From the IMG/VR virus record IMGVR_UViG_3300050821_007029: a stretch of DNA of 61,390 bases. One strand, given 5' to 3'. The position numbers and the translations under genes were made by a program. This DNA is from an uncultured virus (IMG/VR IMGVR_UViG_3300050821_007029) (lineage: Duplodnaviria > Heunggongvirae > Uroviricota > Caudoviricetes). The notes under the pieces were generated by a model. The model was not told the DNA's origin and made no database searches. It saw only the letters and a program-made list of their open reading frames with translations. Positions 1-43,893 of the stretch are shown here, piece by piece. Every line of letters begins with the position of its first letter. The stretch's first letter is position 1.

Positions 1-87
1 GCCGAGCTTGACCTGACCCCGTACCGGGCGGAGACCATCCTCACGGCGGCGCGGGCCAACGGGCACCTCAACGAGGAGGACCACTGA
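1..87 (+). CDS. 3' end of a truncated ORF (possibly Spd-like or other conjugation accessory protein)
   Basis: Frame 1 is open from base 1 (AELDLTPYRAETILTAARANGHLNEEDH*). Its TGA overlaps the ATG at 87 (TGATG coupling). Function is inferred from context only. Confidence 0.5.
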   Translation, partial: AELDLTPYRAETILTAARANGHLNEEDH

Positions 88-485
88 TGCCAGCGAAAAT
101 CACCGCGGGCAGCGCGCAGGCGAAAACCCTCGCGGCGCTGTCGAACATGGAGTTGCGCGGCACCACCGACGTCGCCGCCTACGCCGCGTCGGTGCGCGCG
201 ATCGCGTATCACTTCGCCCTCGAACTCGACGTGACCGCGCATGAGCTGCAGGTCGTCCTGGGGAAGGCGAAAGGCAGCATGATGGACCGCTTCCAGGCGC
301 GGATGGCGGCACGCCGGGTCGTCCGCAAACTGCGGGCAGCGGCGGAAGACGCCCGGTCGGTGGGTGACAACGCCGCCCGGTTCTGGGCGGACTACACCCG
401 CACCTACGCCGAGGTGATCAACCCCGACCGCAAGACCCGCGACACGTGGCAGTTCACCGAGAAACCAGCCGCGAAGGCGAAGTAA
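87..485 (+). CDS. TraA-like plasmid transfer accessory protein
   Basis: 132 aa, helical, with ARMAARRVVRKLRAAAE resembling actinomycete plasmid/AICE TraA proteins. GAGGAGG RBS; lies directly upstream of the TraB-like gene. Confidence 0.55.
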   Translation: MPAKITAGSAQAKTLAALSNMELRGTTDVAAYAASVRAIAYHFALELDVTAHELQVVLGKAKGSMMDRFQARMAARRVVRKLRAAAEDARSVGDNAARFWADYTRTYAEVINPDRKTRDTWQFTEKPAAKAK

Positions 486-567: not shown

Positions 568-2496
568 ATGGCGCGGAGCCGCGACCATGAGAACCACACC
601 CTGGAGCGTGTCGCCGCCGGGGAACTGTCCCGTGTCGTCGTCGTGGCGCCACCGTGGCTGGCGTGGATCGCGACCCTCACCGGCGGCCTGCTGCTGCGGC
701 TGGCGTGGCCGCAGTGGGAAGCCGCCGCGTGTGTCGGGTCCGGCGGCCTCGTCCTGTCCGTCTTGGCGGCGCATCTGACCCGTCACCGCGAAGGCCTCGG
801 CCGTTACCTCGCCGCGGTCACGGTCCTGCTCGCGTTCGGGTGGCTCGCCACCGCGGAGGCGGCTGGGCTGACCCGGGTGGTGGTGGGGGTGTGGTTCATC
901 GGCGGCATGGTCGTCGCGTTCGGGTGGTCGATGTGGGTTCACATCCATGAGGGCGGCGACGAAGCCGGTGTGCATCACCTGTTCGGCCGCGCCGCGAAAC
1001 CCGCCAGCCTCGAAGGCGCCAAGGTCCTGTCGGTCAAGCTGGCCGGCCGCAAGACTCACGCCGTCGTCCAGCACCCACCCGGTGGGGTCACCGCGGACCT
1101 GATCAAACGCGCCCCGAACCTGGAATCGGCGATGGGCCTGCCCCCGAAGTCGATCACCGTCAGCCCGCATGAGGACCACGCCGGCCGCTCCCACGTCGTG
1201 TTCTCCGACCCCCGCGTGCTGAAAACCCCGGTGCCGTGGCCGGGGCCGTCGCGGCCGGGGGCGTCGATCGCGGAACCGGTGCGGCTCGGTTTGTGGCAGG
1301 ACTCCGAGCCCATGGACTACCGGGTGGTCAACCACCACAACCAGGTGATGGGCGCCACCGGCGTTGGCAAGACCATGTCGATGGGGTGGTGTGAGATCGC
1401 GGAGACGGTCACCCGCTATGACGCGGCGGTGCTGGCGTTCGACATCACCAAGGGTGAGCAGTTCCTCGGTCCGCTGCGGCCCGCCCTGCATTGCCTGGAA
1501 ACCACCCCGGAGGAGGCGCGGGCCCGGCTGCGGGCCCTGCATCCGCTGGTGCGGGCCCGCACTGACTACCTCGCCACCCAGCACCTGCCGTCGTGGCGGG
1601 AAGGCTGCGGCCTGACACATCTGACGATCTGGCTGGAGGAATGCCCCGACATCATCGCGCTCCTCGACGACGACGACCTCGAGGCGTGGCTGAGTGACGT
1701 CAAAGCTGGGCGGTCGGCGGGGATCCGGTGGGTGCTGTCGCTGCAGCGGTCCGACTGGACGCAGATGCCCACTCTCGCCCGCGGGCAGCTCGCCAAGACC
1801 TGCTTCGGTGTCCTCGACGACCAGGACGCCAGCTTCGGCCTGTCCGCCCGCCAGGCCGACGCCGGCTGCAGCCCGGAGCACTGGGGTTCGAGCCAGCCGG
1901 GGATGGCCTACATCGACGCCCCGTCGATCCCGGACGACCGGCGGATCATGCCGTGGCGGGCGTTCTTCTGGGGTGACGACAGCCACCTGATCGCCGCCCA
2001 CGCCGCCGAGTGGCCAGCCACCGACCGTCCACTCGACCATGTGACAGCGGCCGCGCTGGCTGATCTGGCGGCCGCTCCAGTGTTCCCGGCTGAAAACCCC
2101 CGGCCGGCTACTGTGGCCACAGCACCGGCCACCACACACCCGGCCACCCTCCACGTGGTCGAACCACCCGAGGTGGCCGAAGGAGATGATGAACCCGTGG
2201 CCGACATCGAAGTGGACGAAGACACACCGTTCGGCGCGTGGAAGTTCGGCGGCGACGCGCCGGCCAGTGAGCCGATGGACGCCGCCACCGCCCGCGACGT
2301 GGTCCGCCGCCAGCTGAACGAGTGGCGGCTGAAAGGCCAGACCACCTTCGGCATCCCCGAGCTCTCCGCGGTGCGTGAACGGACCGGCCGGTCGAGGCCG
2401 TGGCTGTATGACGTCCTCGCCGAGTTCGAACGTGACGGGGTCCTGCGGCAGCGGGGCACCAGCCCGTGGACATGGGAGATCCAGAGTGCGGCCTGA
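568..2496 (+). CDS. traB: TraB-like FtsK/SpoIIIE-family conjugative DNA translocase
   Basis: N-terminal hydrophobic TM segments, Walker A GATGVGKT, Walker B-like TIWLEE, GRSAGIRWVLSLQR motif, C-terminal winged helix (GRSRPWLYD). GGAGG RBS. Confidence 0.85.
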   Translation: MARSRDHENHTLERVAAGELSRVVVVAPPWLAWIATLTGGLLLRLAWPQWEAAACVGSGGLVLSVLAAHLTRHREGLGRYLAAVTVLLAFGWLATAEAAGLTRVVVGVWFIGGMVVAFGWSMWVHIHEGGDEAGVHHLFGRAAKPASLEGAKVLSVKLAGRKTHAVVQHPPGGVTADLIKRAPNLESAMGLPPKSITVSPHEDHAGRSHVVFSDPRVLKTPVPWPGPSRPGASIAEPVRLGLWQDSEPMDYRVVNHHNQVMGATGVGKTMSMGWCEIAETVTRYDAAVLAFDITKGEQFLGPLRPALHCLETTPEEARARLRALHPLVRARTDYLATQHLPSWREGCGLTHLTIWLEECPDIIALLDDDDLEAWLSDVKAGRSAGIRWVLSLQRSDWTQMPTLARGQLAKTCFGVLDDQDASFGLSARQADAGCSPEHWGSSQPGMAYIDAPSIPDDRRIMPWRAFFWGDDSHLIAAHAAEWPATDRPLDHVTAAALADLAAAPVFPAENPRPATVATAPATTHPATLHVVEPPEVAEGDDEPVADIEVDEDTPFGAWKFGGDAPASEPMDAATARDVVRRQLNEWRLKGQTTFGIPELSAVRERTGRSRPWLYDVLAEFERDGVLRQRGTSPWTWEIQSAA

Positions 2497-2749
2497 CCCG
2501 GAGAAGACCGAGATCATCCCCTTGAAGGCGTCCACGGTCCTGGCGCCTCACCGGGCCGTCGTGGTGCCGTGGCTGCGGCGCCACTCGTGGGCGCTGACCA
2601 TCGGACTGGCGGTGGTGTTCCTCGCCACCGCCAACCTCTGGTCCCCCATGACACCCCGCCACTACGCCGAACTCGCCGGCTTGTACGTGGTGGCGTTCGG
2701 CGGCGCGTACGTGGGCTCCCGCGGGCGCCCGGGCAGGCACAGGTCATGA
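2486..2749 (+). CDS. small two-TM membrane protein (Spd-like)
   Basis: GTG at 2486 overlaps the traB end; two hydrophobic segments (WALTIGLAVVFLAT, LAGLYVVAFGGAYV). Confidence 0.55.
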   Translation: MRPDPEKTEIIPLKASTVLAPHRAVVVPWLRRHSWALTIGLAVVFLATANLWSPMTPRHYAELAGLYVVAFGGAYVGSRGRPGRHRS

Positions 2750-2836
2750 TCATCCGCGGGCGGGCGTGGGCCCGGGCGGGCAGCCGCGTGGGGGCTGGGG
2801 GTGTCAGCGCGGGAGAGAGCCGCTGGTCACACGCCC

Positions 2837-2929
2837 CTGACGTGATCATCCGACGCCCGCTGAGGGTGCCTGACGTTGATCGTCCGACGTTTTCCAGGGA
2901 CAGTCTGACGTGATCATCGACCATCCGAC
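2837..2929. repeat. three imperfect direct repeats CTGACGT(T)GATCRTC(C)GAC, candidate clt/TraB-recognition locus
   Basis: Copies at 2837-2854, 2870-2888 and 2905-2921 (plus CATCCGAC at 2922-2929), spaced 33-35 bp, in the intergenic gap downstream of traB. Confidence 0.65.
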
Positions 2930-2947
2930 AGCCTTGGAAAGGGTTGA

Positions 2948-3781
2948 GTGACGATGTGGGGCAGGCTCCGGCGCGGTAGATCGCCTGCGGCCCAACTGCT
3001 GGCGGGACTGGGTGCGGAGACGTTCGGCTGCTTTCCCAGTCAGGGCTTTTGCGTCTACTGCCTGTGGGATGACCGTGACGTCTTGCTCTATGTGGGCCAG
3101 ACGACGAACCTCCTGCGCCGTCTCGGTGAGCATCAGCAGTCCCCGACGAGAGGCGCTTTCGTTCGGGTCTCCCTGTTCCGGTGTTACAGCGAGCGCCAGA
3201 TGCACCTCACGGAGGAGTGGCTAATCGACCGATTGCAGCCCCCCTTGAACGTGTGGGGCACCCGCGACCAGGAGGAACGCGCCAATAGCCGCATGGAAAG
3301 GGGCCGCGCCGCGTGGGCTGAGTCGAAGCAGGAGTTCGCGGAGATAGCCCGGCGGGAAGGCTGGGCTAAGGTTCAGCTGCGTCCTATGCCAGAACCGCGC
3401 AAGCGGCGGCGTTATCACCGTGAGCCCCCTTTGGCGCCCCCAATCGCGCCTGGCCTTCCGGTTCCCCCGGACGTTACGGCTGAGGTGCCCGAGGGTGGCG
3501 TCGAGGTTCCCGCAGCTCCGGTGACATTCCCGTTCTCACCGGAGCTTTCGACTGCGCGCTTCCGGGAGTGGCTCGCGCGGCATCCGGCTGGGTGGGTGTT
3601 CAAAGCATCCGATCTCGCGCCCATAGCGCTGGAGGTTGGCCGGTCGCGGCCGTGGTTGTACGACAAGATTGAGGAACTCGAAGCCGATGGCTCCATAGTC
3701 CGTCTAGGCGGGCAGCCCATGCAGTGGCGCTTGCGCCCGCTGCTGCTTAGCCCGGCTGATGCGGAGGCCGCCGGTGAGTGA
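2948..3781 (+). CDS. GIY-YIG endonuclease with a C-terminal TraB-like winged-helix domain
   Basis: CVYCL...LLYVGQTTNLLRRLGEH...EEWLIDRLQPPLN is a GIY-YIG core. The C-terminus shares GRSRPWLYD with TraB. Confidence 0.8.
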   Translation: MTMWGRLRRGRSPAAQLLAGLGAETFGCFPSQGFCVYCLWDDRDVLLYVGQTTNLLRRLGEHQQSPTRGAFVRVSLFRCYSERQMHLTEEWLIDRLQPPLNVWGTRDQEERANSRMERGRAAWAESKQEFAEIARREGWAKVQLRPMPEPRKRRRYHREPPLAPPIAPGLPVPPDVTAEVPEGGVEVPAAPVTFPFSPELSTARFREWLARHPAGWVFKASDLAPIALEVGRSRPWLYDKIEELEADGSIVRLGGQPMQWRLRPLLLSPADAEAAGE

Positions 3782-4079
3782 CCGCAGCCCTGGCCGGAGT
3801 CTCGCGCTGGCCGCCCTGATCCTTTTCGTCCTCGCGGCCGCCAGCCACAGCCTGGCCGCCATCGGGTGGGCGGTCCTGGCCGACGGGGCACTGGGCGCCT
3901 ATTACCTGTTCGACGTCCGCCGGCGGCCGTTCCTCCGCTGCGGCCGCTGCGGTGGGAGCAACCGGCTGCATTCGAAGGTGTGGACGTACGCGTTCGGCCA
4001 CTGCGGCCGATGCCACGGCACCGGGAAACGGCTCCGCCTGGGCGCCCGTGTGTTCTTCGGCCAGAAAGGACTCCGATGA
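3774..4079 (+). CDS. membrane protein with a DnaJ-like CxxCxG zinc-finger pair
   Basis: Two TM segments, then CGRCGG...CGRCHGTGKR. Similar small proteins commonly neighbour traB in actinomycete elements. ATGA overlap with the next gene. Confidence 0.65.
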   Translation: MSDRSPGRSLALAALILFVLAAASHSLAAIGWAVLADGALGAYYLFDVRRRPFLRCGRCGGSNRLHSKVWTYAFGHCGRCHGTGKRLRLGARVFFGQKGLR

Positions 4080-5416
4080 CGGCCACACTGGCCACGTTGT
4101 CCACCGGCGTGGAGCCACTGTCCGCGACCCGTGTCCGACTGACCGTGGACGTGCCGTTCAGCTATCTGCGGGAACCACTGGCGGCCGCGTACCGGGACGC
4201 CGCGAAACAGGTCATGGTCCCCGGGTTCCGCCCGGGGCACGCCCCCCCGAGGCTGATCGACCGCCGTGTCGGCCGGAAGACGGTGATCCAGCAGGCGCTG
4301 CGGCAGGTGCTGCCGGACCTGTACCGGGCGGCGGTGAAAGACGCCGGCCTACGTGTTCTTGGTGACCCGGACCTTGACGTCACCACCGTCGTCGATGAAG
4401 CCCATGTGGTGTTCACCGCCGACGTTGATGTCCGCCCCGAGATCACCCTCCCCGATTTCAGCGGCCTGGAAGTCACAGTCGACACCGCTGAGGTCACCGG
4501 CGGGGAGGTGGATGAGTTCCTGGCGGAGATGCGGGAACGGTTCGCGTGGCTCGAACCCGTCCACCGCCCCGCCAGCGCCAGCGACTACGTGACGCTGAGC
4601 ATGTCCGCGTCAGCCGGCGGCGAGCTCGTCAGCGACGCGCAGGTGACGCAGGTGTCCTACATGGTGGGCGCCGGAACCCTGTTCGCGTCCCTCGACACCG
4701 CCCTCACCGGCCTCAGCGCCGGCGACGTGACCATGGTCCGGGACAAGCTCCTCGGCGGCTCCCACGCCGGGCGGGAAGCCGACATCAAAGTCACCGTCGG
4801 CCGGGTCGCCGTCAAGGTCCTCCCCGAACTCGGCGACAAGTTCGCCGCGGACGCCAGCGAACACGACACCCTCACCGCGTGGCGCGAAACCATCACCCGG
4901 GACCTGGCCGCGGCGAAACGCGCCCGCCAGGCTGAGCAGGCCAGCCAGCGCGCTGTCGACGCGGTCCTCGCCGTGACCGATTTCCCGTTGCCTGAGTCGG
5001 CCGTCACGACGGCGGTGGAACAGCGGGAACGTCTCCTGCGGCGCCAGCCCGGAACCGGTGGGGTGTCCAGCGACATCGCCGGAGCGCGGCTGCCCGGCGC
5101 CGCTGACCTCGGCGGTGAGGTAATGGCGGAGGCGGAGAAGTCGGTGCGGACCGGGCTGCTTCTCGACCAGGTCGCCGAGGTCGCTGGGCTCACCACCGAC
5201 GGGGAGGAAGTCGCGGCGTTCGTCTCGGCGAAAGCCACCGAAGCGGGTGTCGACCCCGGCGATTTCCTGTCCGAAGTCACCGCGTATCACCAGGAGGCGG
5301 CGTTCGCCGTGGAGGTGCTCCGGGGCAAAGCCCTGGCGTGGCTCGCGTCTCAGGTCACCGTCCACGACACCGCCGGCGTCCCCGTCGACGTCACCGCGCT
5401 CAGGGAGGCCCAGTGA
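4076..5416 (+). CDS. tig: trigger factor (ribosome-associated chaperone/PPIase)
   Basis: Ribosome-binding signature VPGFRPGHAP, N-terminal VEPLSATRVRLTVDVPF, DVRPEITLPDFSGLEV, VKVLPELGDKFA. AAAGGA RBS before ATG 4076; 446 aa. Confidence 0.9.
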   Translation: MTATLATLSTGVEPLSATRVRLTVDVPFSYLREPLAAAYRDAAKQVMVPGFRPGHAPPRLIDRRVGRKTVIQQALRQVLPDLYRAAVKDAGLRVLGDPDLDVTTVVDEAHVVFTADVDVRPEITLPDFSGLEVTVDTAEVTGGEVDEFLAEMRERFAWLEPVHRPASASDYVTLSMSASAGGELVSDAQVTQVSYMVGAGTLFASLDTALTGLSAGDVTMVRDKLLGGSHAGREADIKVTVGRVAVKVLPELGDKFAADASEHDTLTAWRETITRDLAAAKRARQAEQASQRAVDAVLAVTDFPLPESAVTTAVEQRERLLRRQPGTGGVSSDIAGARLPGAADLGGEVMAEAEKSVRTGLLLDQVAEVAGLTTDGEEVAAFVSAKATEAGVDPGDFLSEVTAYHQEAAFAVEVLRGKALAWLASQVTVHDTAGVPVDVTALREAQ

Positions 5417-7885: not shown

Positions 7886-9009
7886 GGGTTAACGGTAATG
7901 GCCGCGGCGAGGCGGCTGCCAGGTGTGGCGCCGACGGCGAGCTGCGCGGTGAAGGGCTTCACCTTCGGCGAACTCGTGTCCGACGCGGTGACGGCCGCGA
8001 CGGCCGCCGCCGCGCTGGCGGGTTTCACGGTGGCCGTCCGGCCGCCGGGGGCGATGGTGGTGGTGACGGGCCCGGTGAACGCCCAGCTGATCGTGTCGCC
8101 TGTCACGTCTCCGTGGTCGTCCTTTGGCGCGAGGGTGACGGTGGCGGTCTGCGCCGCGGTCATGAGCGTGTTGCCTGGCTGAGCGCCCATGACTTCCTGC
8201 CACAGGGTTTTCAGCAGAGCCGCGCGGGGGTCGGTGGGCCCGGTGATGGTGTTCGGGTGCGGCGGCGCGGCGGAGGGGTCGCCGTTGTACCACATGACGT
8301 CCGACACGGGCAGCCCAGCGGCGAGGCGGCCCGTGAGGAACGTGGTGACGTAGCTGAGGTAGGCGGTCAGCTGCGCCGTGGTGGGTGTGCCACCGGAGGC
8401 GGAGTTGCCGAGTTCGCCGATCCCGACGGGCAGCGGTGGGCTGGACTGGGCGGCGAGGGACGCGAGGGTGGCGAGGGTGGTGCCGGAGTCGTACGCGGTG
8501 CAGTACAGGTCCGCGGCGACGACGTCGCAGGATCCGCTGGGGAACCAGGAAGCCCACGCGGCTTCGCCCGCGCCGCCGGACGCGTCGTAGACGACGTCGA
8601 CACCGAGGGCGTGGAGAGCCGGGTAGTAGTAGGCGAACCCGGCTTTGCACGTGGCCGCGGACATGCCGGTGATGGTCTGGACTTCCTGCCACAGCACCAC
8701 CCGCACCCTGGCGCCCGCGTTCAGGAACGCTTCAACGGAGACGGCGAGGGAGCTGGCGTCGGCGGGGGTGCCGGGGAACGTGGGCTGGTAACACAGCCAC
8801 AGTGTGCAGCCCGCTCCGATGAGTTCAGCGACGTCGGCGGCTGGTGTGGTGGGGTACTGGGCTGGCTTGAAGTAGATCTTCTGCGCGGAGCGGGCCAGCG
8901 GCGCGCCGACGTAGCCGTCGAGGATGTCGGCGGTGGCGAGAACATCGGTGGTCCCCGTGTAGACGCCCTCTTTCGAGGTGGCGCCTACACGGGGAACCGG
9001 GCCGGTCAG
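7882..9009 (-). CDS. GH26-like (clan GH-A) glycoside hydrolase domain plus a C-terminal Ig-like domain; probable CTG start
   Basis: The frame is open well upstream of the track's GTG 8706. GGGAG RBS 6 nt before CTG 9009. VVLWQE and LPVGIGELG provide two candidate catalytic Glu. Paralogous to the N-terminus of 13866-16670. Confidence 0.65.
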   Translation of the reverse strand: MTGPVPRVGATSKEGVYTGTTDVLATADILDGYVGAPLARSAQKIYFKPAQYPTTPAADVAELIGAGCTLWLCYQPTFPGTPADASSLAVSVEAFLNAGARVRVVLWQEVQTITGMSAATCKAGFAYYYPALHALGVDVVYDASGGAGEAAWASWFPSGSCDVVAADLYCTAYDSGTTLATLASLAAQSSPPLPVGIGELGNSASGGTPTTAQLTAYLSYVTTFLTGRLAAGLPVSDVMWYNGDPSAAPPHPNTITGPTDPRAALLKTLWQEVMGAQPGNTLMTAAQTATVTLAPKDDHGDVTGDTISWAFTGPVTTTIAPGGRTATVKPASAAAAVAAVTASDTSSPKVKPFTAQLAVGATPGSRLAAAITVNP

Positions 9010-11084: not shown

Positions 11085-11636
11085 TTAAGGTGACGTCTTC
11101 ACTCCGGCGTTGAGCATGTGTGCGTGGATCATGTCGATCCGGGCGCGGGCCTCGGCGGCGACATGAGGATCACGGATCACGGTCATCTGGTTGTCCTGCA
11201 ATGTCTCGCCGCTGGTGGACCAGTTCGTTGAGCCGGTGACGACATCCACCCCATCGACAAGGACCATTTTCATGTGCATGATGGCGCCCCGTTCGCTGCG
11301 GCCCACCGCGACAGAGTTCGACGGCAGGACGTCTTTCGCGAGCAGCGCCGCCTCATGCTTCCCCGACGCCTGCGACGAGTCGAGAGTGAGTTGCACGAAC
11401 ACGTTCTCGTCGTCGAGTTTCTCCAGCAGCGCCGCCGCGAGATCATCGTCGTCGTAGCCGTACATCGCGCAAACGAGGCTGCGGTTCGCGGATTTCACCA
11501 GCGCGACGAGTGCACCGTGAACGTCGTCGACCGGGGAGTAGAACGTCGGCGTGGACTCCTCGGGGTAGCCGGGAGCGAAACCGCCGGTCTTGAACTGCGC
11601 CAGTTGCGTGAGACTGTCGAGGGCCATGTGATCCAC
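11085..11636 (-). CDS. phospholipase D-superfamily protein (single HKD, Nuc-like)
   Basis: HMKMVLVD followed by TGSTNWS...QDN; AMYGY motif. Probable leaderless start at the second Met (MALDS). Confidence 0.88.
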
Positions 11637-32692: not shown

Positions 32693-33640
32693 TCACAGAT
32701 CCGTGTGGCCGACGTTACGCGACCCGCAGTCCAGGCACACCGCCGCCACACCAGTCCCATGCTGCCCCGACCGCAACTGCAGATTCCCCTCCGCGTTGTC
32801 CGCCTTGTCACCGTTCTTGTGATGCACCGTCTCGCTGCGCTTCAGCGGCCGCCCGAGCTTCCGCGCCATCACCAGGCGGTGCTCCAGCACGTAGCCGTTG
32901 CTTGAGGGGGTGATCAGATGAGCGTCAGCAGGGTCGCGTTTCACACGGACGTACCCCTCGCCAGTGATGCTGCGTCCACCGTTCCAAGATGGATGATCGC
33001 GTCCTTTCCTAACTGGCCCCCGCGTCACCACGCCCGCCTCACGCAGCACGTTGGACAGAGCGCCCTGGCTGCAGCCAAGCGATGTGGCTATCTGCTTTTG
33101 ACTCTCACCTCCGGCGTATCTCCGCACGGCCTCACGCCTTCGCTCGTCAGTCCAGAACCTGGAAACCCCAGGTGGCCGCAGTTCCACGCCCCGGCGCACC
33201 AGGTAGCTGCGGACGGTCACATGGTTTCCTATGCCAAAACGCGCGGCCAGCTGGGGCAGGGTGAGGCCATCGGCGTAACCCGCTACGAGCTGATCCACGG
33301 TGTCCTCGCCGAGCAGGGGGGTCTTTCCCTGGTGACGGCGCGGGACGTCGGCCTCATCAAGAGCGGCGATTATGTAGCGGGCGCTCACGTGCAGCCGTTC
33401 AGCGAGACGTCGGATGGACTCGCCCGCCTTGTACGCGGCGACTACTTCCGCCTTCTGGTCTGGGCTGCCGGTCCAGTTGTGAGTGCCGCCCGCCCGCATC
33501 GTGACATCCTGGCGTTTCAGGGCCCGGGCGACGGGACTGGTGGATACGCCGAGAAGCGCGGCGATCTGAGTGAGGGTCAGGCCTGTCCGGTAGAGGGCCG
33601 CGATGCGCTGGTCATGTTCCTTCGTAAAGTGTCTAGTCAC
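32693..33640 (-). CDS. HNH homing endonuclease with three to four N-terminal HTH repeats
   Basis: YVLEHRLVMARKLGRPL...VHHKNGDKADN..NLQL. TGGTAGAAT -10 lies 7 nt before the GTG (leaderless). Confidence 0.9.
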   Translation of the reverse strand: MTRHFTKEHDQRIAALYRTGLTLTQIAALLGVSTSPVARALKRQDVTMRAGGTHNWTGSPDQKAEVVAAYKAGESIRRLAERLHVSARYIIAALDEADVPRRHQGKTPLLGEDTVDQLVAGYADGLTLPQLAARFGIGNHVTVRSYLVRRGVELRPPGVSRFWTDERRREAVRRYAGGESQKQIATSLGCSQGALSNVLREAGVVTRGPVRKGRDHPSWNGGRSITGEGYVRVKRDPADAHLITPSSNGYVLEHRLVMARKLGRPLKRSETVHHKNGDKADNAEGNLQLRSGQHGTGVAAVCLDCGSRNVGHTDL

Positions 33641-34124: not shown

Positions 34125-34808
34125 GTGACAGTGAACGTTGACGGCTGCTCTGTGTGCGGGGCGCCAGCGCGTGCCCGGGGATTCTGCCAGACGCACTACC
34201 ACCGGTGGTACATCCATGGCGACCCGCTGACCACCAAGCGGATCCTGGGCAATGACCGAGCCCGCTTTGAATCAAAAGTAGATCGGACAGGTGGGCTCGC
34301 CGCCTGCCATCCGTGGCTGGGCGCCCGCCAAACCGGCGGGTGGGGGTATTTCTGGCTCGGCGACCGGATGAGGTCCGCGCATACGGTCGCCTGGCAGTTC
34401 GCCCACGGCCCTGTCCCGGCAGGCCAGGAGCTGGATCATGAGTGCCACAACCGAGCGATGAATGCAGGTGCTTGCTTCCCGGGTGTCTGTCCCCACCGGC
34501 TTTGCTGTAACGACCTCCATCTGGCACCCAAGACCCGCCAGCAGCACATGGCTGACACTCACCCATGGCCGCACGCCAGGGGTGAGCAGCATGGCCTGGC
34601 GAAACTCACCTGGGCCCAGATACCGGAGATCCACGCGCTCCTGCGGGACGGCGAGTTGTCCCTCTCGGCCATCGGACGCCAGTTCGGCGTTGGACACGGG
34701 GCCATCAGCGCGATCAGGGACGGCCGTACCTGGCGCCTTGATTTGGGACCGCTGATCACCGATCAGCCTCCACTGGGCGCAGCACCGTGTACCCCGGCAC
34801 CAGGCTGA
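34125..34808 (+). CDS. HNH/His-Me homing endonuclease inserted against the operon direction
   Basis: CSVC...GFCQTHYHRW, CHPWLG, AHTVAW...ELDHECHN...CCND.HL, RGEQHGLAKLT plus HTH. Confidence 0.85.
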   Translation: MTVNVDGCSVCGAPARARGFCQTHYHRWYIHGDPLTTKRILGNDRARFESKVDRTGGLAACHPWLGARQTGGWGYFWLGDRMRSAHTVAWQFAHGPVPAGQELDHECHNRAMNAGACFPGVCPHRLCCNDLHLAPKTRQQHMADTHPWPHARGEQHGLAKLTWAQIPEIHALLRDGELSLSAIGRQFGVGHGAISAIRDGRTWRLDLGPLITDQPPLGAAPCTPAPG

Positions 34809-35227: not shown

Positions 35228-35569
35228 TCAGGTCCTCGTGACGGGGCCGCGGGTGCGTGCGCCGCCCTGGTCGGCGCGGACCGGGGACCGCGGCGCGCTG
35301 GGGTCAGCCTTCGCGGCCGCCGCCTTGGCTTCAGCCGCGGCCTTGTCCTCGGCTTCCTTCTCCCCGCGCGGATCCGCCTTCGTGTCCACGGTGGGGGGCA
35401 GGTCGTAGTGGACACGCAGCGGCTCGAAACACTCCGAATGCGCCAGCGCGATCGGGTGCCCGGCGCGGACGACGGTCTGCCCGGCGTTGATGAACACCGG
35501 CTGCCCCTCGTAGTCGAACGTCGCGGACTCCTTCGCCATCAGCAGGCCCGGTTCGCGTCCCTCCATCAC
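35228..35569 (-). CDS. hypothetical head-associated protein
   Basis: 113 aa; VRAGHP motif with an Ala/Lys-rich tail. True start may be the internal ATG. Confidence 0.6.
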   Translation of the reverse strand: MMEGREPGLLMAKESATFDYEGQPVFINAGQTVVRAGHPIALAHSECFEPLRVHYDLPPTVDTKADPRGEKEAEDKAAAEAKAAAAKADPSAPRSPVRADQGGARTRGPVTRT

Positions 35570-36246
35570 GGTGTCCCTTCATCGGTGGGCGCGTGCGCCT
35601 TGATCCACCCATGCTGACGCCAGAAATGGCCGCCGGGTGTGTAGTGCGGGTGGCGGATCGTCTCGGTGCGGCACCCGGCGAGGGTGAGGATCTCCAGGCA
35701 GACGCCGTGGCCGCCGGGGGAGTGGAACTCAATCAGCCAGTCCGTCCGCCGGGCACCCAGCACCCGGGTGGCGCCACGCAGGACCTGCTCCTCGTGCCCC
35801 TCAGTGTCGACCTTGACGAACCCCGGCATCCCGAACTGGCCCGCGAGCCAGTCCATCGTCTTCGCGGTGAACGAGTCCCGCGTGATCGATGGGTCGTCCC
35901 AGTCACCGGGATCCCATTCCATGCCCTTCAGCCCAGGCGTTACGAGCTGCCCCGTCTCAGCGGGCCGTCCCGGGAGGCAGGCGAGCTCCACCTTGCCGTC
36001 ATGATCGGACACCGCGAACCGGCGGCACGTCACCCGCGGTTCTTTCGTGTAGCGGCGGACGAGCTCCGCGTAGGAATCACCGCTCGGTTCCAGCGACACG
36101 ACCTTGGAGCAGAACCTCAGCAGATCAGGGACCGACTGGCCGCAGTTCGCGCCGACGTCGAACCCGACACTGACGGGCTTGAACCCAGCCCACAGAGCAT
36201 CACGTACCTCAGCGGGATCGGTGTGCTCAAGAACCTTCACGACCAC
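35566..36246 (-). CDS. FkbM-family methyltransferase
   Basis: FDVGANCG, LEP, AVSD and VKVDTEGHE..VLRGA motifs. Confidence 0.9.
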   Translation of the reverse strand: MVVKVLEHTDPAEVRDALWAGFKPVSVGFDVGANCGQSVPDLLRFCSKVVSLEPSGDSYAELVRRYTKEPRVTCRRFAVSDHDGKVELACLPGRPAETGQLVTPGLKGMEWDPGDWDDPSITRDSFTAKTMDWLAGQFGMPGFVKVDTEGHEEQVLRGATRVLGARRTDWLIEFHSPGGHGVCLEILTLAGCRTETIRHPHYTPGGHFWRQHGWIKAHAPTDEGTP

Positions 36247-36289
36247 GAGCGTACTCGCTGAACAGGCGCATCACCCGCAACGCGCGCCG

Positions 36290-37072
36290 CTACTCCGCGA
36301 GACGGTACTCCACGTCAGCGCGGCTCTCCCTGAACGACGCGGCCTGGCTGAACGAGAAACTCCACTCGTTCGAAGCCCACCCCTCCAGCGCCCCGATATT
36401 CTGTGTGCGTGAGGCGTCGGGAACCACGCACTTAGTGCCGGTCCTGGGAAGGATCTTCGTCTCGATGCACCAATCCCAGCCGCTCGTGGTGGGGCCGCCG
36501 GAATCGACGTTCCAGTCCCAAGCGGGTTCGAGCATCATCTCCCACCGGTCTGGCCAGGTGCCCCACGTCCACGCGTTGAAGTACGGCAGGAGACGCACCG
36601 CGGCCTGGTCGGCGTCAGCGTCCTGAGCGGGTTTGTGCTCATCCCACCCCTGACCGCCCCTGGAATGGGCGCAGACGGCGAGGACGTCACGGCTGGTCTC
36701 GAACTCACCAGCCGCCCACAGCATGTAGGTGAGGGCGTCGCTGGACACGACGACGTCTTCCTCGCTGAACACCGCGAACCGGACTGCCGGGTCGGTGAAC
36801 ACCCGCGTGGCGGCCTCCCCGATAGCGCGGTGCATCCCCCGCGCGGCGACAGCCGCGGGAGAGTCGGGGATGACGTCGAGGGCGGGGATTTTCGCCGTCA
36901 TCGACCGGATCAGGGCCAGCTGCTCGTCACGTTTCGGGGACTCACCAAGGGCGATGGAGAAACGCCCGACCTGCTCGATGCCGTCAGCGGCCGCCCATGA
37001 CGCGAGGACGCGTTCGAGGTAGTAGGGGCGCCGGCACGCGGTCACGACCACGGCGATGTCGCTGAACTCCAT
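36290..37072 (-). CDS. GT-A glycosyltransferase (GT13/GnT-I-like)
   Basis: VVVTACRRPYYLERVL, FSEEDVVVSSD, WGTWPDRW, GWDW and SRTQNIG motifs. Confidence 0.8.
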   Translation of the reverse strand: MEFSDIAVVVTACRRPYYLERVLASWAAADGIEQVGRFSIALGESPKRDEQLALIRSMTAKIPALDVIPDSPAAVAARGMHRAIGEAATRVFTDPAVRFAVFSEEDVVVSSDALTYMLWAAGEFETSRDVLAVCAHSRGGQGWDEHKPAQDADADQAAVRLLPYFNAWTWGTWPDRWEMMLEPAWDWNVDSGGPTTSGWDWCIETKILPRTGTKCVVPDASRTQNIGALEGWASNEWSFSFSQAASFRESRADVEYRLAE

Positions 37073-37221
37073 CAGATGTTCTCCTCGAACGCCAGAGCGG
37101 CCGCGTACTCAGCGGCGCGGGTGGGCTGGCGTGGTGTCGTCCCGTAGGTGCGGGACACGATTATCCACCCTGCCCGGAGTCCCCGCGGCCTCATGGGTTC
37201 CATTCAGCCTGGGCGCCAGGA

Positions 37222-38061
37222 TCAGGCGGGCACCGGCTCACGGGGCCTAAACCAAGTTGCTGGGCAACGGCGCTCGAACACCCAGCGGGGCCACGACTCG
37301 TCCACGTCGACGGGCTTGACCGCGAGGCCGCCGCCGTTCTCCCCGGTGCGGTAGCGGGTGCCGTCAGCGATCAGCTTGCCCTCGGGGGAGTTCAGGAGTT
37401 CGGTGTGGCAGGTGGCGGTGTCGAGTTTCTGTTTCTGCGCTTCGGGGCCGCCGAGCCACGACAGGTGCCAGCCGCCCCGCGCGAACTGGGGATAGACGCC
37501 ACGGCTGTCCCGGAGTTCAGCGAGCCCTGTCGCGCCGGTGATCCGCGACCGCAGGAACCCCAGCCGCGCCGCGACGCACGTCGGCGGCAAGGGGGCGGCG
37601 ACTTCCCAGTCGACGGCGAACACACAGGTCCGCATCCGCACCGCGGTGATCCACGGCCCCTCCCAGGCGAGGAGTTCCGCTGAGGGGAGTTCATCGAGGT
37701 CACCGATGATGACCAGGTCGCCGTCGGCGCCGAGTTCGTCGATGACGCGCCACGCGGAGTTCCGCTGGTGATGCTCGTTGACCCACGGGTCCGCGCCCGC
37801 CCGCAGGTCGTTGTCAATGACGTAGTGAAAGCGATCCGACCACCGGCGGAACAGCGACCGCGTCAGCCCGTACACGAGTGGTTTCGTCACACCCCGGTGT
37901 GTCATGGGGGCTTCGACGACGACATGCTGCACGTCGAACCCGTCGAGTTCGTTGAGGCGGCATTCCAGCATCGGCAGCTCGCCCCGGAACATCACCGGGC
38001 ACCAGACCGTCACCCCATGGTCCTGGGAAGCGGCGGCGGTGTCATGCAGAAAAGCTAACAC
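37222..38061 (-). CDS. GT17 (MGAT3/GnT-III-like) glycosyltransferase
   Basis: F..E..MLECRLNEL...VVVEA..THRG..KP, E.HQRN, IGDLDELP and GGWHLSW motifs. Alternative start GTG 38013. Confidence 0.85.
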   Translation of the reverse strand: MLAFLHDTAAASQDHGVTVWCPVMFRGELPMLECRLNELDGFDVQHVVVEAPMTHRGVTKPLVYGLTRSLFRRWSDRFHYVIDNDLRAGADPWVNEHHQRNSAWRVIDELGADGDLVIIGDLDELPSAELLAWEGPWITAVRMRTCVFAVDWEVAAPLPPTCVAARLGFLRSRITGATGLAELRDSRGVYPQFARGGWHLSWLGGPEAQKQKLDTATCHTELLNSPEGKLIADGTRYRTGENGGGLAVKPVDVDESWPRWVFERRCPATWFRPREPVPA

Positions 38062-38780
38062 GCCCGGTCAAGGACACGGCGGACCTTGCCGACGTCGCCG
38101 TCGATTCCCCGCCGCCCGCCGGCCAGCCACGCGTTGTACGCGGCCTCGTCCGCCGCCCACAGGGGCTCAGCTTCCCGGTAGGTGTCGTCCCACACGCCGG
38201 TGACGAGACGATGCTGATGCTCGATCACGACGTCCGGCAGGTACCGGAGGCAGCCCGCGCGGTTCCCCAGGTCCTTGATGATGTTGTCGCCGAAGAAATG
38301 AGACACCGTGGGGTGGATGACCCAGCCGAGCGCCACCACGATCGGGGTGGACACCACCCACGCGGTGGGCAGCCGCTCACCCATGATCTTGTCGTCACCG
38401 TAGGCGAACCCGCCGTCCGCGACGGCGTCGAGGAGCAGCGTGTCCCACCCGGGGGTGCGGGGGCAGTGGTCGTCGCCGAGGGACATCACCGCCCGGTAGC
38501 GGCTCAGCCGCGCCGGTGACGCCGCCTCGTTCGTCCACCCGCCCAGTGTCTTGCGCGGCCCCGACATCCACGCCACCGGGATCCTTGACCGCTGCCCCAT
38601 CACCGCCGCCATATAGGCGTTGAGGCCTTCAGGGTCGTCGCCGTCGACGCAGAACACGACGTCGGTCGCCGCCGTAGACGTCGACTCGACCGCGAGGACC
38701 AGGTCCCGCGCTTTGCGCACCCGCCCCCGGGTGGGGACGATCAGCAGCAGATCACGGAGCTCACCCGCCACGGGGTTCAC
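38055..38780 (-). CDS. GT2-like glycosyltransferase
   Basis: IVPTRGR, VDGDDP, GDDHCPRTPGWD and IEHQH motifs. Confidence 0.8.
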   Translation of the reverse strand: MNPVAGELRDLLLIVPTRGRVRKARDLVLAVESTSTAATDVVFCVDGDDPEGLNAYMAAVMGQRSRIPVAWMSGPRKTLGGWTNEAASPARLSRYRAVMSLGDDHCPRTPGWDTLLLDAVADGGFAYGDDKIMGERLPTAWVVSTPIVVALGWVIHPTVSHFFGDNIIKDLGNRAGCLRYLPDVVIEHQHRLVTGVWDDTYREAEPLWAADEAAYNAWLAGGRRGIDGDVGKVRRVLDRAC

Positions 38781-39318
38781 CTTCGGCGATGAACGCGCCC
38801 GTCAGCGACCCCGGTGTCAGCGGCCCCGTATGCGCGACGATCCCCGGGAACGTCGCCAGGACCTCCTCCACCGACCAGTGATAGACGTGAGCCTCGAACG
38901 GGTTGCCTTCCATCTCACCCTGCTCGTACCGGTGAACCGGCAGGTTGATCACCAGCCACCTCGCCACTTTCCGCGCCCGCGCCCACAGGGCGATGGCGTC
39001 TTCCGGCGGCATGTGCTCGACCACGTCGCAGAACAGGTACAGATCAGCCTCGGGGAGGACGAGCTCCCGGGCGTCGCCGCGGATGACGTGCTGATAGCGG
39101 AAGTTCAGCGCGAACCGCGCGACGTAGGGCTCCCAGATTTCAATGGCCGTCCACGGCGCCCTCGGCCGCGTCCAGTCGGCGGGCAGCCAGGGGCCGTAGA
39201 ACTCCTTCGCCGTCCCCGCGCCCGCGCCGACGTCCACCACCGACTCAGGCACCGGATCGCGGAGGTTCAGCAGCTGGGCGAGGATCCACCGGCGGCACGA
39301 CGGGTCCGAGTAAGGCAC
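38761..39318 (-). CDS. class I SAM-dependent methyltransferase
   Basis: VVDVGAGAG, AIEIWEPY, GDA and DVVEHM motifs. Confidence 0.85.
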   Translation of the reverse strand: MPYSDPSCRRWILAQLLNLRDPVPESVVDVGAGAGTAKEFYGPWLPADWTRPRAPWTAIEIWEPYVARFALNFRYQHVIRGDARELVLPEADLYLFCDVVEHMPPEDAIALWARARKVARWLVINLPVHRYEQGEMEGNPFEAHVYHWSVEEVLATFPGIVAHTGPLTPGSLTGAFIAEGEPRGG

Positions 39319-39327
39319 CGGGCCAGC

Positions 39328-39972
39328 CTAGCGGGGGACGTCGCTGACCGGCAGCCACCGGAAACACGGCACCCCGGTCACCTCCAGCGGCGCCACATAC
39401 CCCTCACGCCGCCAGGGGCCCTGCACGGTGTCCTGGGAGTCGTGGCGGTAGTGGTACAGCCGCCGCGGCAGATACGTTTCCGTCCGCACATGGGGGCGGA
39501 CCTTCGCCGCCCACGTCGAATCCTCCGGCCACCCCACCCGGAAGTCACCCAGGCGGGCGAGCTCAGCGCGGATCGGCTGAATGTGGGTCAGGTCCCGGTA
39601 CAAGCCGATCGGCGAATCATGCGGCTCGTGGCGGATCGAGCAGTCCACCAGCGGCCCCGGCACACCATCGTGGGTGTACAGCATCTGGAAGGCCACCACG
39701 TCCGGGCCGCTGGCCAGCGCCGTCAGGAGCGACTGGACGAAATCAGCGGGAACCATGTCGTCGTCGTCCACGAAACTCACGTACTCGCCCCGCGCCGACT
39801 CAAGCAGCGCCTGCCGGATCGATCCGAGGGCACGTTCACCGTGGTTGTGGCACGCCACCACCTCCACCACCCCCGCCTCCATCACCTGCGGGAGGAGAAC
39901 GCCGAGGAGCTCACTGAACTTGTCCCGCCGCCATCCCAAGTGCGCGATCAGCACTGACCAGCGGGGTGTCAC
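39328..39972 (-). CDS. GT2-family glycosyltransferase
   Basis: WSVLIAH, ARGEYVSFVDDDD, PEDSTW and LYHY motifs. GTG 39972 overlaps the upstream stop. Confidence 0.85.
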   Translation of the reverse strand: MTPRWSVLIAHLGWRRDKFSELLGVLLPQVMEAGVVEVVACHNHGERALGSIRQALLESARGEYVSFVDDDDMVPADFVQSLLTALASGPDVVAFQMLYTHDGVPGPLVDCSIRHEPHDSPIGLYRDLTHIQPIRAELARLGDFRVGWPEDSTWAAKVRPHVRTETYLPRRLYHYRHDSQDTVQGPWRREGYVAPLEVTGVPCFRWLPVSDVPR

Positions 39973-40403
39973 AGCAGATGCCATTCGACGAGCAGCCCCC
40001 CCGCGAAACTCAGCACCGCCGCGCCCGCGAGCAGCACACCCGTCTTCGCGATGGCCCGCCATCCCCGTTCGGGCCGCAGCCACACGATCAGGCCACCCAG
40101 CGCGGCGGTGACCAGCGTCGCCCATCCCAGCGCCACCCACCCCGACCACAGCAGATACGGCACCCCCGGCGCCAGCGTCCCCGCGACCGTCGCCACGCCG
40201 CACGCCACCGCGGCACCCCGGCCGTCTTCCGGCGCGGACTCGTACTGGCCGCCGGCCATCCCCGAGAACGACGCCATCCCCGTCGACACCGCCGCCGCCC
40301 AGATCGCCGTATGCGGCTGATGGGAGATCGTCATGCCCAGCCCCAGCCCAAGCATCGACGTCACCCCGTCAAACCCGCCGAACACTATGGGCTTAGCTTT
40401 CAT
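39969..40403 (-). CDS. VIT1/CCC1-like membrane protein
   Basis: IVFGGFDGVTSMLG and SGMAGGQY motifs; about five hydrophobic segments. Confidence 0.7.
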   Translation of the reverse strand: MKAKPIVFGGFDGVTSMLGLGLGMTISHQPHTAIWAAAVSTGMASFSGMAGGQYESAPEDGRGAAVACGVATVAGTLAPGVPYLLWSGWVALGWATLVTAALGGLIVWLRPERGWRAIAKTGVLLAGAAVLSFAGGLLVEWHLL

Positions 40404-40969
40404 GAGCGCCGCTTACGCGCGATCGCCATCCCGTACCGCAGCCGCACCTCATCACATTCAGCGTCACGCGGGTACAGCAGCCGCGCCAGGTCCGTCACCG
40501 ACGCCGCCAGGTAATCCCCGTCGGGGCGTTCCAGCGCCATGAACCAGTCCTCGATGACGTAGTAGCCACCGGGTGCGACCAGCGGCCACAGCATCCCGAA
40601 ACACGCGCGGGTCTGCGGCCCCATATGGGACGCGTCGTCGACGATCAGGTCGTACTGGCCCGGGCCGAGAAGCTCCGGCAGCCGCGGGTCGTCCTGCGCG
40701 GCGACGACCTGGCGGGTGCCGTCCGGCCACACCCGCCCATCGACGTTGAAATCGACACCGGTGACCTCACCGAGGGGGAACAGGGCCTGCCACATGCGCA
40801 AACTCTCACCCTTCCAGATCCCGATCTCACACACCCGCCCCCTGGGGCCGATGTCAGCGGCGATCTCGACGTAGGTGGCGAAATACCCATGCTCGGTGAT
40901 CTTGTCCGTGTGGAAGGTGGCACCCGCCGCCACGACACGTTCCAGGTCCTCTATCTCGTTCTGCCGCAA
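40400..40969 (-). CDS. class I SAM-dependent sugar O-methyltransferase-like protein
   Basis: TDK..HGY..TY, EIGIWKGESLRMW..LFP, DLIVDDASH and PGGYYVIED motifs. TTG start with GGAGG RBS. Confidence 0.85.
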   Translation of the reverse strand: MRQNEIEDLERVVAAGATFHTDKITEHGYFATYVEIAADIGPRGRVCEIGIWKGESLRMWQALFPLGEVTGVDFNVDGRVWPDGTRQVVAAQDDPRLPELLGPGQYDLIVDDASHMGPQTRACFGMLWPLVAPGGYYVIEDWFMALERPDGDYLAASVTDLARLLYPRDAECDEVRLRYGMAIARKRRS

Positions 40970-40992
40970 CCCAGCCGCCTCCCCGCTATCGC

Positions 40993-42141
40993 TCAGATTC
41001 TCGCCTGGATCGCCTCGAGCGCCGGAACCCAGAATTTCTCCAGCACCAGGTCCACGTCGTAGGTGAGCGCGTGCGGCCGCGCCGCCGCCGCCTTCGCCTG
41101 GTACGCCGCGCCCCGCTCGTACGCCTTCTCATAGACCCGGTAAATGTCGTCGATGAACGGGGTCGTCCACTGCGACTCATGACCCCACGCGTACGCCGGC
41201 TGCCCCCGCACCTTCCACGCCGGCCCACCCACCTCGTCCGACGCCGACCCTTTCGTCACCACCGCTGGCGTCCCGCACGCCATGCCTTCCAGCGGCGTCA
41301 TCCCAAACCCCTCCGCCTGCGTGCAGCCCGAGATCAGGTGCGACATCCCATAGGTGCCAGCCATCATCCGCGGTGTCACGAGGCCCGCCGTGGTCAGGTA
41401 CTGGTCCGACCACCGCACCGCGGGGCTGATGCCCAGCCGGTCCGCCAGCGTCGCCAGGTCATTCCCATACGCTGGATGCCGCTGCGTGTGAACCACCAGG
41501 ATCGCGTCGTCGTGGCGTTTCAGCAGCCGCGCGAACGCGTAAAACTGCTCGAACCATGCCTTCCGGTACGACTTGTTGTTCGCGGCGACGATCAGCACCA
41601 CGAATTTCCCCTGCACCCCCATCGCTTTCCGCAGCGCGTCCCGGTCCTCCGGCGGCCGGAACACCTTCGTGGTGTCCAGACCATGCGGCACGTACAGGGG
41701 GTCGAAGCCGGCGTCGCGCAGCTGCGCCTCACCGAACCGGGACACCGCGATCGGGATCGCTCTCGTCTCCATCAGCTTCGTGTGGTCCCGCAAACTGAGC
41801 GGCTCACAATCCACCGGCATCCAGCACGCCATCGGGCACGGCAAGCTCGCTGGGTCCACCTCACACGCCCACTGATCCATCAGCGAGATGATCAGATCAG
41901 CGCCGAAATGCCGCGCGTGGGAACCAAGGATGTCACCCCCATACGGGGCGCTGTCCGTCCCCGCGTACACCGTGAACCCATTCCACTCACGCGGCGACCC
42001 CCGCAGCCCATGAAACGCCATGATCGCCATCTCATAGCCCAGGCCCGCCAACCCCGGCACCCACAGCGCCGTCTGCTCCGCGTAAGCCGTCCCATCCCAC
42101 GGCGCGTTAGACACCCACAGGATCCGGCGGATCTCCTTCAC
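40993..42141 (-). CDS. GT4-family (GT-B) glycosyltransferase
   Basis: RILWVSNAPW, YVPHGLD, RKAW and EGFGMTPLEGMACGTP (Ex7E) motifs. Confidence 0.9.
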   Translation of the reverse strand: MKEIRRILWVSNAPWDGTAYAEQTALWVPGLAGLGYEMAIMAFHGLRGSPREWNGFTVYAGTDSAPYGGDILGSHARHFGADLIISLMDQWACEVDPASLPCPMACWMPVDCEPLSLRDHTKLMETRAIPIAVSRFGEAQLRDAGFDPLYVPHGLDTTKVFRPPEDRDALRKAMGVQGKFVVLIVAANNKSYRKAWFEQFYAFARLLKRHDDAILVVHTQRHPAYGNDLATLADRLGISPAVRWSDQYLTTAGLVTPRMMAGTYGMSHLISGCTQAEGFGMTPLEGMACGTPAVVTKGSASDEVGGPAWKVRGQPAYAWGHESQWTTPFIDDIYRVYEKAYERGAAYQAKAAAARPHALTYDVDLVLEKFWVPALEAIQARI

Positions 42142-42184
42142 CAGCGTGGATCGTAATGCTCGTAGCGGTATTGCGGTGACGGAT

Positions 42185-42568
42185 TCACTCGCCCTCCTCC
42201 CGCGGCGCCTTGGCTTTCCCCGCACCCCGCGGGCCGGTCCCCTTCGGTTTCGCCTCCGACCGCACCAGGATCGTGACCGTCGCCCCGTTGTCGTCGAACG
42301 GCATGTCCTCCACCGCCGCCGCGTACACCTCATCGCCCTCGGACACCTGCGACGACCACTGGCTGTCCATCACGAAATGCCCCGCGCTGGCGCCATCCTC
42401 ATCTTTCAGCTCCGGGCCGCCCACGGCGAAACTTGGCCCCACCGATGAGCCGCCCGCTGGGAACGCCTTCGCCCGGATCTCCACCTCCAGGTCCCCCGCC
42501 TCAGCCGTGTACACGAGTTTCCCTTTGCGGTCGTTGGGGAGGACGCGGCGGAACGTGCGGAACGGCAT
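42185..42568 (-). CDS. hypothetical protein (possible capsid accessory)
   Basis: GGAGG RBS before ATG 42568; beta-rich with a basic tail. Confidence 0.6.
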   Translation of the reverse strand: MPFRTFRRVLPNDRKGKLVYTAEAGDLEVEIRAKAFPAGGSSVGPSFAVGGPELKDEDGASAGHFVMDSQWSSQVSEGDEVYAAAVEDMPFDDNGATVTILVRSEAKPKGTGPRGAGKAKAPREEGE

Positions 42569-43832: not shown

Positions 43833-43861
43833 GTCGTCTTCCTCCTGCATAGGGAGATGAC

Positions 43862-43893
43862 TCAGGCCGGGAGACCCAACTCTCCCGGCCTGA
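43862..43893. terminator. perfect 13-bp stem hairpin downstream of the capsid gene
   Basis: TCAGGCCGGGAGA-CCCAAC-TCTCCCGGCCTGA. A T-run follows on the + strand only. A TGGTAGACT -10 lies at about 43912-43920 on the - strand. Confidence 0.55.

Follow-up and report, generated by a model that had tools for sequence, protein, structure and literature searches.

The stretch of DNA analysed here (the window) covers 61,390 nucleotides of an uncultured caudoviricete (IMG/VR record IMGVR_UViG_3300050821_007029) and, according to the protein record, belongs to a contig of 123,390 bases. It opens with a plasmid-type transfer region on the + strand, in which a TraA-like gene, traB, a membrane open reading frame (ORF), an intergenic stretch with repeats, a gene for a GIY-YIG nuclease, a membrane/CxxC ORF and a trigger-factor gene follow one another. 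The remaining window consists of tailed-phage structural genes on the - strand (capsid, protease, portal, endolysin). Our main focus is the nuclease, which ends in a winged helix of the type with which TraB, an FtsK-type DNA translocase, is predicted to read the repeats of its transfer site, clt. The features of the region are collected in Table 1.

The initial annotation had noted that the C-termini of TraB and of the nuclease share an identical 9-mer, and they do: GRSRPWLYD is encoded in both genes, by 27-base stretches that differ at 3 positions, all of them synonymous. The DNA flanking both 27-mers is only 32-47% identical in an ungapped comparison. Because of these differences, we read the similarity between traB and the nuclease gene as one of protein level and not as a recent DNA duplication. 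Recent gene conversion from traB was considered and ruled out, given the same divergent flanks and the fact that the traB DNA of L002 is equally close to the 27-mer. BLASTP aligned TraB with the nuclease at 18 identical residues out of 47 (38%, ungapped, E 5e-8), and an exact shared 9-mer is expected 6e-6 times between unrelated proteins of such composition. Among 248 unique TraB domains, all nine residues recur in 2 (the phage's own TraB and P0009), eight in 6 and seven in 13. Over the rest of the domain, identity between the nuclease and its own TraB is 19%, which places that TraB at rank 124 of 248; the contrast with the complete match of the helix therefore suggests that the recognition helix has been matched while the scaffold diverged.

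The tail as a whole bears out the claim that the nuclease carries a TraB-type winged helix. On a profile of 119 TraB C-termini, with no nuclease included, it scored 47.5 bits (E 9e-13). AlphaFold2, run on the tail with a 42-row alignment, returned a winged helix (alpha1-beta1-alpha2-alpha3-beta2-beta3) at a predicted local distance difference test score (pLDDT) of 96.4. The shared motif falls on the recognition helix: it opens alpha3, which is cited in the excerpt of PMC3583192 as the clt-reading element of pSVH1 TraB. The two nearest neighbours of the model in the Atlas were actinobacterial TraB/FtsK clusters (template modelling scores 0.75 and 0.77), and a comparison with the PDB returned generic winged helices (best Z 8.1, root-mean-square deviation 2.2 over 64 residues). 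By profile and fold model, then, the nuclease tail is a true TraB-type winged helix. The same profile family also scored pWTY27 TraA (58 bits), reported to bind its own clt (PMC3583192), as well as pSN22 TraB and three other plasmid proteins, with a range of 28-58 bits. In a quick tree of 77 columns with many open forks, the nuclease domain fell inside the 17-row subclade of its own TraB (support 83), but not adjacent to that TraB; the second-copy rows L081, L090 and L092 of this tree are probably TraB pieces.

The other half of the protein has the GIY and YIG boxes together with Arg56, His60, Glu87 and Asn99, as the superfamily is defined in PMC1564403, and its match to PF01541 lies above the cut-off. 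A sequence search of the PDB with this catalytic half gave no match, and the whole nuclease, folded as a single sequence, reached a pLDDT of 37. The G+C content at third codon positions (GC3) of the nuclease gene is 0.75, compared to 0.87 for traB and the trigger-factor gene. The full-length nuclease found only itself among 7998 scored candidates. Its 72-aa tail gave 9 matches among 1.84 billion representatives: P0006 (a TraB), P0127, P0128 and P0130 are related, and 4 were repeat-protein noise. P0130 is a second GIY-YIG-winged-helix protein of the same architecture, 30% identical and with a different helix, GRQRTWLYA; as recorded, it is without the N-terminal half of the GIY-YIG domain. A profile search of longer proteins gave 99 matches, nearly all of them TraB or TraB pieces. 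P0128 combines an endonuclease VII domain with two distantly TraB-like winged helices; given low scores (19 and 23 bits per copy) and long branches, we treat it as a weak lead and do not count it as a further nuclease fusion. P0100 is a TraB homologue with C-terminal HNH Pfam domains (PF01844, PF14279) in the place of the winged helix.

The three direct repeats that had been described between the two genes, CTGACGT(N)GATCRTC at 2837, 2870 and 2905, are present, and three were reached in 0 of 100 shuffles, with a pattern chosen post hoc, the repeats having already been seen. However, the likelier unit is the 8-mer YCYGACRN, six copies of which compose the three longer repeats, and a membrane ORF stands between traB and the repeats, so the array is not directly behind traB. 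With this likewise post hoc pattern, the array is the densest such cluster in the window (6 copies, next 3), and 100 Markov simulations reached a maximum of 4. The six 8-mers sit 340-435 bases past the traB stop, and the last one immediately precedes the nuclease gene's putative ribosome-binding site. Most of the traB loci examined have a repeated 7-8-mer that starts no more than about 250 bases from the stop codon; in several, clt is displaced by 300-700 bases. Similar arrays are found at L124 (YCTGACG, four copies) and L072 (YCCGACAC, ten copies), both of which have W-x-Y-D helices, and pWTY27 has CCTGACAC; similar words also occur with other helices (pWTY27, pRL1, L116). L123 showed no such array within 1 kb behind traB.

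Across Streptosporangiales loci (L003-L066, downstream of traB), the sequence of the recognition helix and the clt word co-vary: the helix ISRAWFQKQ goes with the word GTGGCCCC, MSR(A/S)W(A/V)QK with GGTGCCAC or its reverse, and TRQWAQ with GTTGCACC. We regard the array of the window as a good clt candidate. From the identity of the two helices and the covariation of helix and repeat in other loci, we infer that the winged helix of the nuclease and that of TraB address the same repeats.

To place the nuclease gene in context, we surveyed 94 distinct traB loci, 82 of them with 1.5 kb of downstream DNA. A nuclease ORF lay within 1.5 kb behind traB in 3 of these 82 (window included), detection being limited to relatives of six nuclease queries, and all three nucleases carry a winged helix. 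A gene of the nuclease-linker-binding module type is thus optional, being absent behind 79 of 82 traB genes. Second winged helices within 3.5 kb were found in 13 loci, 8 of which had been fetched for having one, so that the unbiased share is 5 of 74. Copies free of any nuclease lie behind traB in L009, L072, L091, L093, L095, L096, L114, L115, L116 and L124. The free copies of L114-L116 share a 70-aa N-terminal part, and L095 and L096 have a tandem duplicate of the traB 3' end between traB and clt. Upstream of traB in L129 (6429-8072, -), a winged helix is fused to an Spd-like membrane protein, and the protein encoded at L097 (3601-4947, -) combines three winged helices with a membrane tail. 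Three TraB-type winged helices occur in one complete 89-kb phage record (L124:4752-5138, 2513-4501; L130:6569-7132): TraB; a CxxC-CxxC protein with GRSRPWLY, directly preceded by four YCTGACG repeats; and, 4 kb upstream, a third copy.

Genome surveys, which scored 14-19 candidates per genome and can miss copies, gave matches in 111 of 401 genomes for the order of G002 (the only tally that the unpublished genome G016 enters), in 8 of 401 for the class, in 65 of 401 for the family of G432, in 43 of 301 for the family of G004 (largely the same genomes) and in 31 of 401 for the family of G1286. Among the fetched short-frame matches, the HNH pair described below was the only nuclease fusion. The two family surveys with samples of 401 genomes added three free copies and one Spd-like membrane fusion, with no nuclease, and five annotated plasmid traB loci showed no nuclease with a second recognition domain within the fetched flanks.

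The HNH pair consists of L027 (Streptosporangium sp. NPDC048047) and L065 (S. pseudovulgare), which are 97% identical and were counted as one event. Here, an HNH_3 nuclease is fused to a TraB-type winged helix that falls within the subclade of its own TraB, and the gene stands behind traB on the opposite strand. The clt of these loci (GGTGCCAC words, 8851-8998) lies beyond the HNH gene, adjoining its start. A 16-bp clt stretch flanks the gene on both sides; it is single in all six sister loci without the gene that were examined, and from this duplication we conclude that the HNH gene is inserted into clt, with the array re-spaced. Empty alleles for this analogue were found at L045, L021 and L058. 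The fusion shares its helix, SRQWAQKH, with the TraB of L019, a locus with the same GGTGCCAC repeats. GC3 of the HNH gene is 0.74, compared to 0.93 for its traB, and the catalytic motifs are intact in both fusions (GIY-YIG and HNH). A scan of the genome collection found no third locus of this kind. Of the further nuclease-winged-helix fusions, P0130 is thus a second GIY-YIG protein, and the HNH gene is one that stands behind traB, inside clt; nuclease fusions proved rare. In L045, the traB gene has a TAG stop inside the recognition domain (L045:7878, G003:C17); it is in the same genome as an HNH-winged-helix element and has the same clt word.

Table 1. Features of the transfer region in the window.
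Feature	Position	Strand	Evidence
TraA-like gene, upstream of traB	87..485	+	NCBIfam NF041213 plasmid_TraA, E 3e-17, 63 bits (under the 80-bit cut-off)
traB, membrane-anchored FtsK-type DNA translocase, 642 aa	568..2496	+	NF041214 plasmid_TraB, E 2e-94, 317 bits (under the 800-bit cut-off)
TraB C-terminal winged helix, predicted clt-reading domain; GRSRPWLYD at 2386-2412	2254..2493	+	TraB-tail profile, 87 bits
Small two-helix membrane ORF, 87 aa, start codon inferred; between traB and repeats	about 2486..2749	+	sequence; frame GC3 0.85
Candidate clt, six direct 8-mers YCYGACRN (2836, 2849, 2869, 2883, 2904, 2924)	2836..2931	+	repeat analysis
GIY-YIG nuclease-linker-winged-helix gene, 275 aa; alternative GTG start 2948	2954..3781	+	ORF, translation
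Predicted GIY-YIG catalytic domain: CVY35, Y46VG48, R56, H60, E87, N99	3050..3250	+	Pfam PF01541, 27 bits (cut-off 22.6)
Proline-rich linker joining both nuclease domains, 15 Pro in 51 aa	3383..3535	+	sequence
Nuclease TraB-type winged helix; GRSRPWLYD at 3638-3664 opens helix alpha3	3530..3745	+	profile, fold model
Membrane and CxxC-CxxC ORF after the nuclease	3759..4079	+	weak DNA similarity to ORFs downstream of traB in L029, L046, L047

The TraB of the window matched 54 plasmid records, 48 of them from Streptomyces and many labelled traB, and has 329 homologues. Its relatives come from Streptosporangiales and soil metagenomes, which makes a filamentous actinobacterium the probable host of the phage. 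The region is unlikely to be an artefact of assembly, because IMG/VR contains an identical stretch of 8,493 bases (L001) and two contigs of the probable source sequencing run cover the region without differences. The small membrane ORF gave no match in Pfam and can be called Spd-like by position only. The ORF after the nuclease is the probable downstream flank of the tra region, and a search of 2450-3100 for sigma-70 promoters and terminators was without match.

A full trigger factor gene (4076-5416, +) is carried by the phage immediately after the tra region. Further into the window, the phage encodes a Ro60/Rsr protein (TROVE and vWA domains; 51510-53165, -; NF041674, E 2e-145); an Rfam search of the whole window gave no match, Y RNA included. 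The portal gene contains an intein with a LAGLIDADG domain, and a second intein gene, of 857 aa, is a probable terminase with intein and homing-endonuclease signals (47265-49727 and 53758-56331, both -). Three free-standing HNH_3 genes, one of them with several HTH domains, and a second GIY-YIG gene are also present (32693-33640, -; 34125-34808, +; 43029-43907, -; 60309-60941, +). Amid the virion genes, glycosyltransferases (GT2, GT17-like), methyltransferases and a VIT1-like membrane gene are clustered at 35566-42333 (-). We also found a Tad2-like (Thoeris anti-defence) gene at 49938-50276 (-; PF11195, E 2e-22) and, in the lysis region, a small phospholipase-D-like protein (11085-11636, -).

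Judging from its domains and surroundings, the nuclease probably targets related mobile elements at their transfer sites. We see about an even chance that it is a clt-addressed, free-standing endonuclease of the homing type, which cuts related elements and thereby spreads itself. Such a nuclease would have acquired its address domain from a TraB; the winged helix would bind the 8-mers, and the tethered catalytic domain would cut at a distance from the bound site. The substrate would be a related element with the same clt code and without the gene, brought into the same compartment by conjugation or co-infection. If the break is repaired from the copy that has the nuclease, with traB and the downstream genes serving as homology, the gene would spread (intronless homing); or else the rival would be lost. 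The target would be hard to lose, because clt and traB are needed for transfer. By analogy, binding to its own clt, which abuts the start of the gene, could damp expression of the nuclease, and its own copy could be spared via a missing or mis-spaced cleavage site, as for I-TevI. Homing or exclusion is favoured because the nuclease genes are sporadic and have a GC3 below that of their traB, as in newly arrived genes, because the protein is built as a nuclease plus a binding module, and because the phage is rich in endonuclease genes and inteins. In addition, two unrelated nuclease folds, GIY-YIG and HNH, have acquired a TraB-type winged helix.

Several observations weigh against homing. GRSRxWLY is the consensus of this TraB clade, so much of the identity over the 9-mer is family background; the 9-residue stretch was picked from the match itself, and within the 21 closest TraB domains a full match has a probability of about 1 in 10. 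Eight of the 9 residues are also found in the TraB of L123 and in the nuclease-free copy of L124, both outside the count of 248, and the L124 copy does not match its own TraB. The nuclease domain is nearer to the L002 TraB (38%) and to P0127 (40%) than to its own TraB (30%), and L002, the closest TraB relative (52%), has no such repeat array in its 60-kb record. The HNH helix matches its own TraB at 6 of 9 residues only, and 74 TraB domains match it equally or better. An empty allele of the window's own element was not found in relatives' loci or in the reads of two runs; the probable source run showed the same element, and a second sequencing run scattered exact pieces of it. In the window, the nuclease gene follows the repeats instead of interrupting them and has no duplication at its flanks, and the element carries the presumed target itself with no visible self-protection. 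The first gene after clt always has repeats at its 5' side (L009, L019, L114, L116), and in this the geometry of the window is not special. Only two independent fusions have a known context. Finally, because 10 of the 13 second copies are without a nuclease, duplication of the winged helix would need no nuclease logic.

The same cut could also serve exclusion. Here the nuclease would be a weapon with which the phage-plasmid destroys rival plasmids or integrative elements with the same clt code as its own, without the gene being copied, so that the selective reason and the outcome would differ from those of homing. We hold this to be credible but unlikely. Its model is Odn (Gp88, origin-directed nuclease) of the Vibrio phage ICP1, which has a copy from a RepA_N replication initiator and cuts the iterons of a foreign satellite; its activity, reported in the excerpt of PMC8263062, shows that a homing-type nuclease with a captured recognition domain can destroy a rival element. 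Many elements have related clt codes, among them two from a single Streptosporangium genome (L045, L065), and the stop in the recognition domain of the L045 traB would also fit. However, nothing in that excerpt says that the carrier of Odn needs the target, whereas in the window the target is on the carrier itself, and the insertion in clt with duplication, the low GC3 and the sporadic occurrence resemble a selfish arrival. A different possibility, which we consider doubtful, is that the TraB winged helix recurs behind traB as free copies, which bind clt as regulators or compete with TraB, and that a nuclease domain joined one of them by chance and has no activity, no specificity or no relevance. 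The nuclease-free copies in ten loci, the Spd-like fusion of L129 and the L097 protein with three copies and a membrane tail are consistent with this, as are a motif near the clade consensus and a region behind traB that is an insertion hot spot (clt shifted by 300-700 bases in several loci); free copies are also commoner than armed ones. Yet both fusions have intact catalytic motifs, the same domain was acquired by two unrelated nuclease folds, and among relatives of the six queries no domain-less nuclease was found within 1.5 kb behind traB in the 82 loci.

The initial annotation had placed transfer processing beside exclusion and homing as a possible role, and of these, exclusion and homing fit better. 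A processing nuclease would be loaded at clt beside TraB, where it would open the phage-plasmid circle and so give the pump a free end to thread. The gene does stand directly behind traA, traB and clt on the same strand, its helix matches that of the neighbouring TraB, and the mechanism of TraB-dependent transfer is described as open in excerpts of PMC12857230, PMC11571958 and PMC4447253. A general role of this kind is nevertheless unlikely, because nearly all traB loci (79 of 82, within 1.5 kb) are without such a nuclease and because tra and clt suffice for pWTY27, TraB being described as moving unprocessed DNA (excerpt of PMC3583192). The profile surveys of 401-genome samples from two further families also gave none, and the HNH version interrupts clt and faces the opposite way. 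Taken together, we find processing highly improbable. It is possible to speculate more widely that copies of the TraB domain form a second layer of clt readers, in which free ones tune or block the loading of the pump and nuclease-armed ones cut at clt; in its boldest form, the nuclease would open its own circular DNA at clt for the pump. We think this improbable. If true, the boldest form would offer a first way to approach the question of how circular double-stranded DNA is moved by a ring-shaped translocase.

Homing at clt, the reading we prefer, can be set against three known systems. Like Odn, the window nuclease is a phage gene that joins a homing-type, GIY-YIG-related nuclease to a domain captured from the repeat-reading protein of a mobile element, and repeat-dependent cutting is predicted here. 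Unlike in Odn, as far as the excerpt of PMC8263062 describes it, the donor is a conjugative translocase, the target is a transfer site and the nuclease domain comes first; moreover, donor gene and repeats are both part of the carrier. The analogy makes an Odn-like mode of action possible, but the protein is not itself an Odn: its captured domain is a TraB winged helix instead of RepA_N, and the repeats next to it are clt-like and not a replication origin. The targets of Odn are reported to escape by re-spacing their repeats (PMC8263062), and I-TevI, in which the determinants of binding and cleavage are separate, is reported to act as a repressor before its own gene without cutting (PMC2988022); as analogies, repression of the I-TevI type and re-spacing of the Odn type would explain self-tolerance.

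The build of an N-terminal GIY-YIG domain, a long linker and a C-terminal DNA-binding module is also that of T4 SegF, SegE, SegG and I-TevI (excerpts of PMC2988022 and PMC1564403). As with these T4 homing endonucleases, the gene is sporadic and compositionally foreign, with possible autorepression at a site before its own start. Unlike the T4 enzymes as described there, the window nuclease is without NUMOD or an I-TevI-type binding module, and its predicted target is a short repeated cis site and not a long unique homing site. With the TraB-clt systems of Streptomyces (pSVH1, pWTY27 TraA, pSN22; excerpts of PMC4447253 and PMC3583192), the region shares an FtsK-type TraB with a C-terminal winged helix, traA upstream and 8-bp direct repeats downstream, the core of which resembles pWTY27 TGACACC. 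In contrast to those systems as reported, it lies on a phage-like contig of 123 kb, has a membrane ORF between traB and the repeats, and continues with a nuclease that has a second copy of the recognition domain.

The architecture had been put forward as one not recognised from earlier descriptions. In searches of the open-licence literature, made at the level of titles and abstract openings, no description of a nuclease fused to a TraB winged helix came up; however, the principle of a nuclease with a captured recognition domain is already described for Odn (excerpt of PMC8263062). From the sequences compared, we regard the architecture as real and recurrent and its function as the part that is deduced.

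If the nuclease does address clt, selfish endonucleases would have found a target that the conjugative elements of filamentous actinobacteria can hardly drop, and would have taken the pump's own reading head at least twice. The principle of Odn would then extend from replication origins to transfer sites, and natural pairs of helix and word, with cleavage as a read-out, would become available for the recognition code of TraB; for the HNH analogue, cultured strains and natural empty alleles exist. It would also provide a selective reason for the fast turnover of the TraB helix and the clt word across loci.

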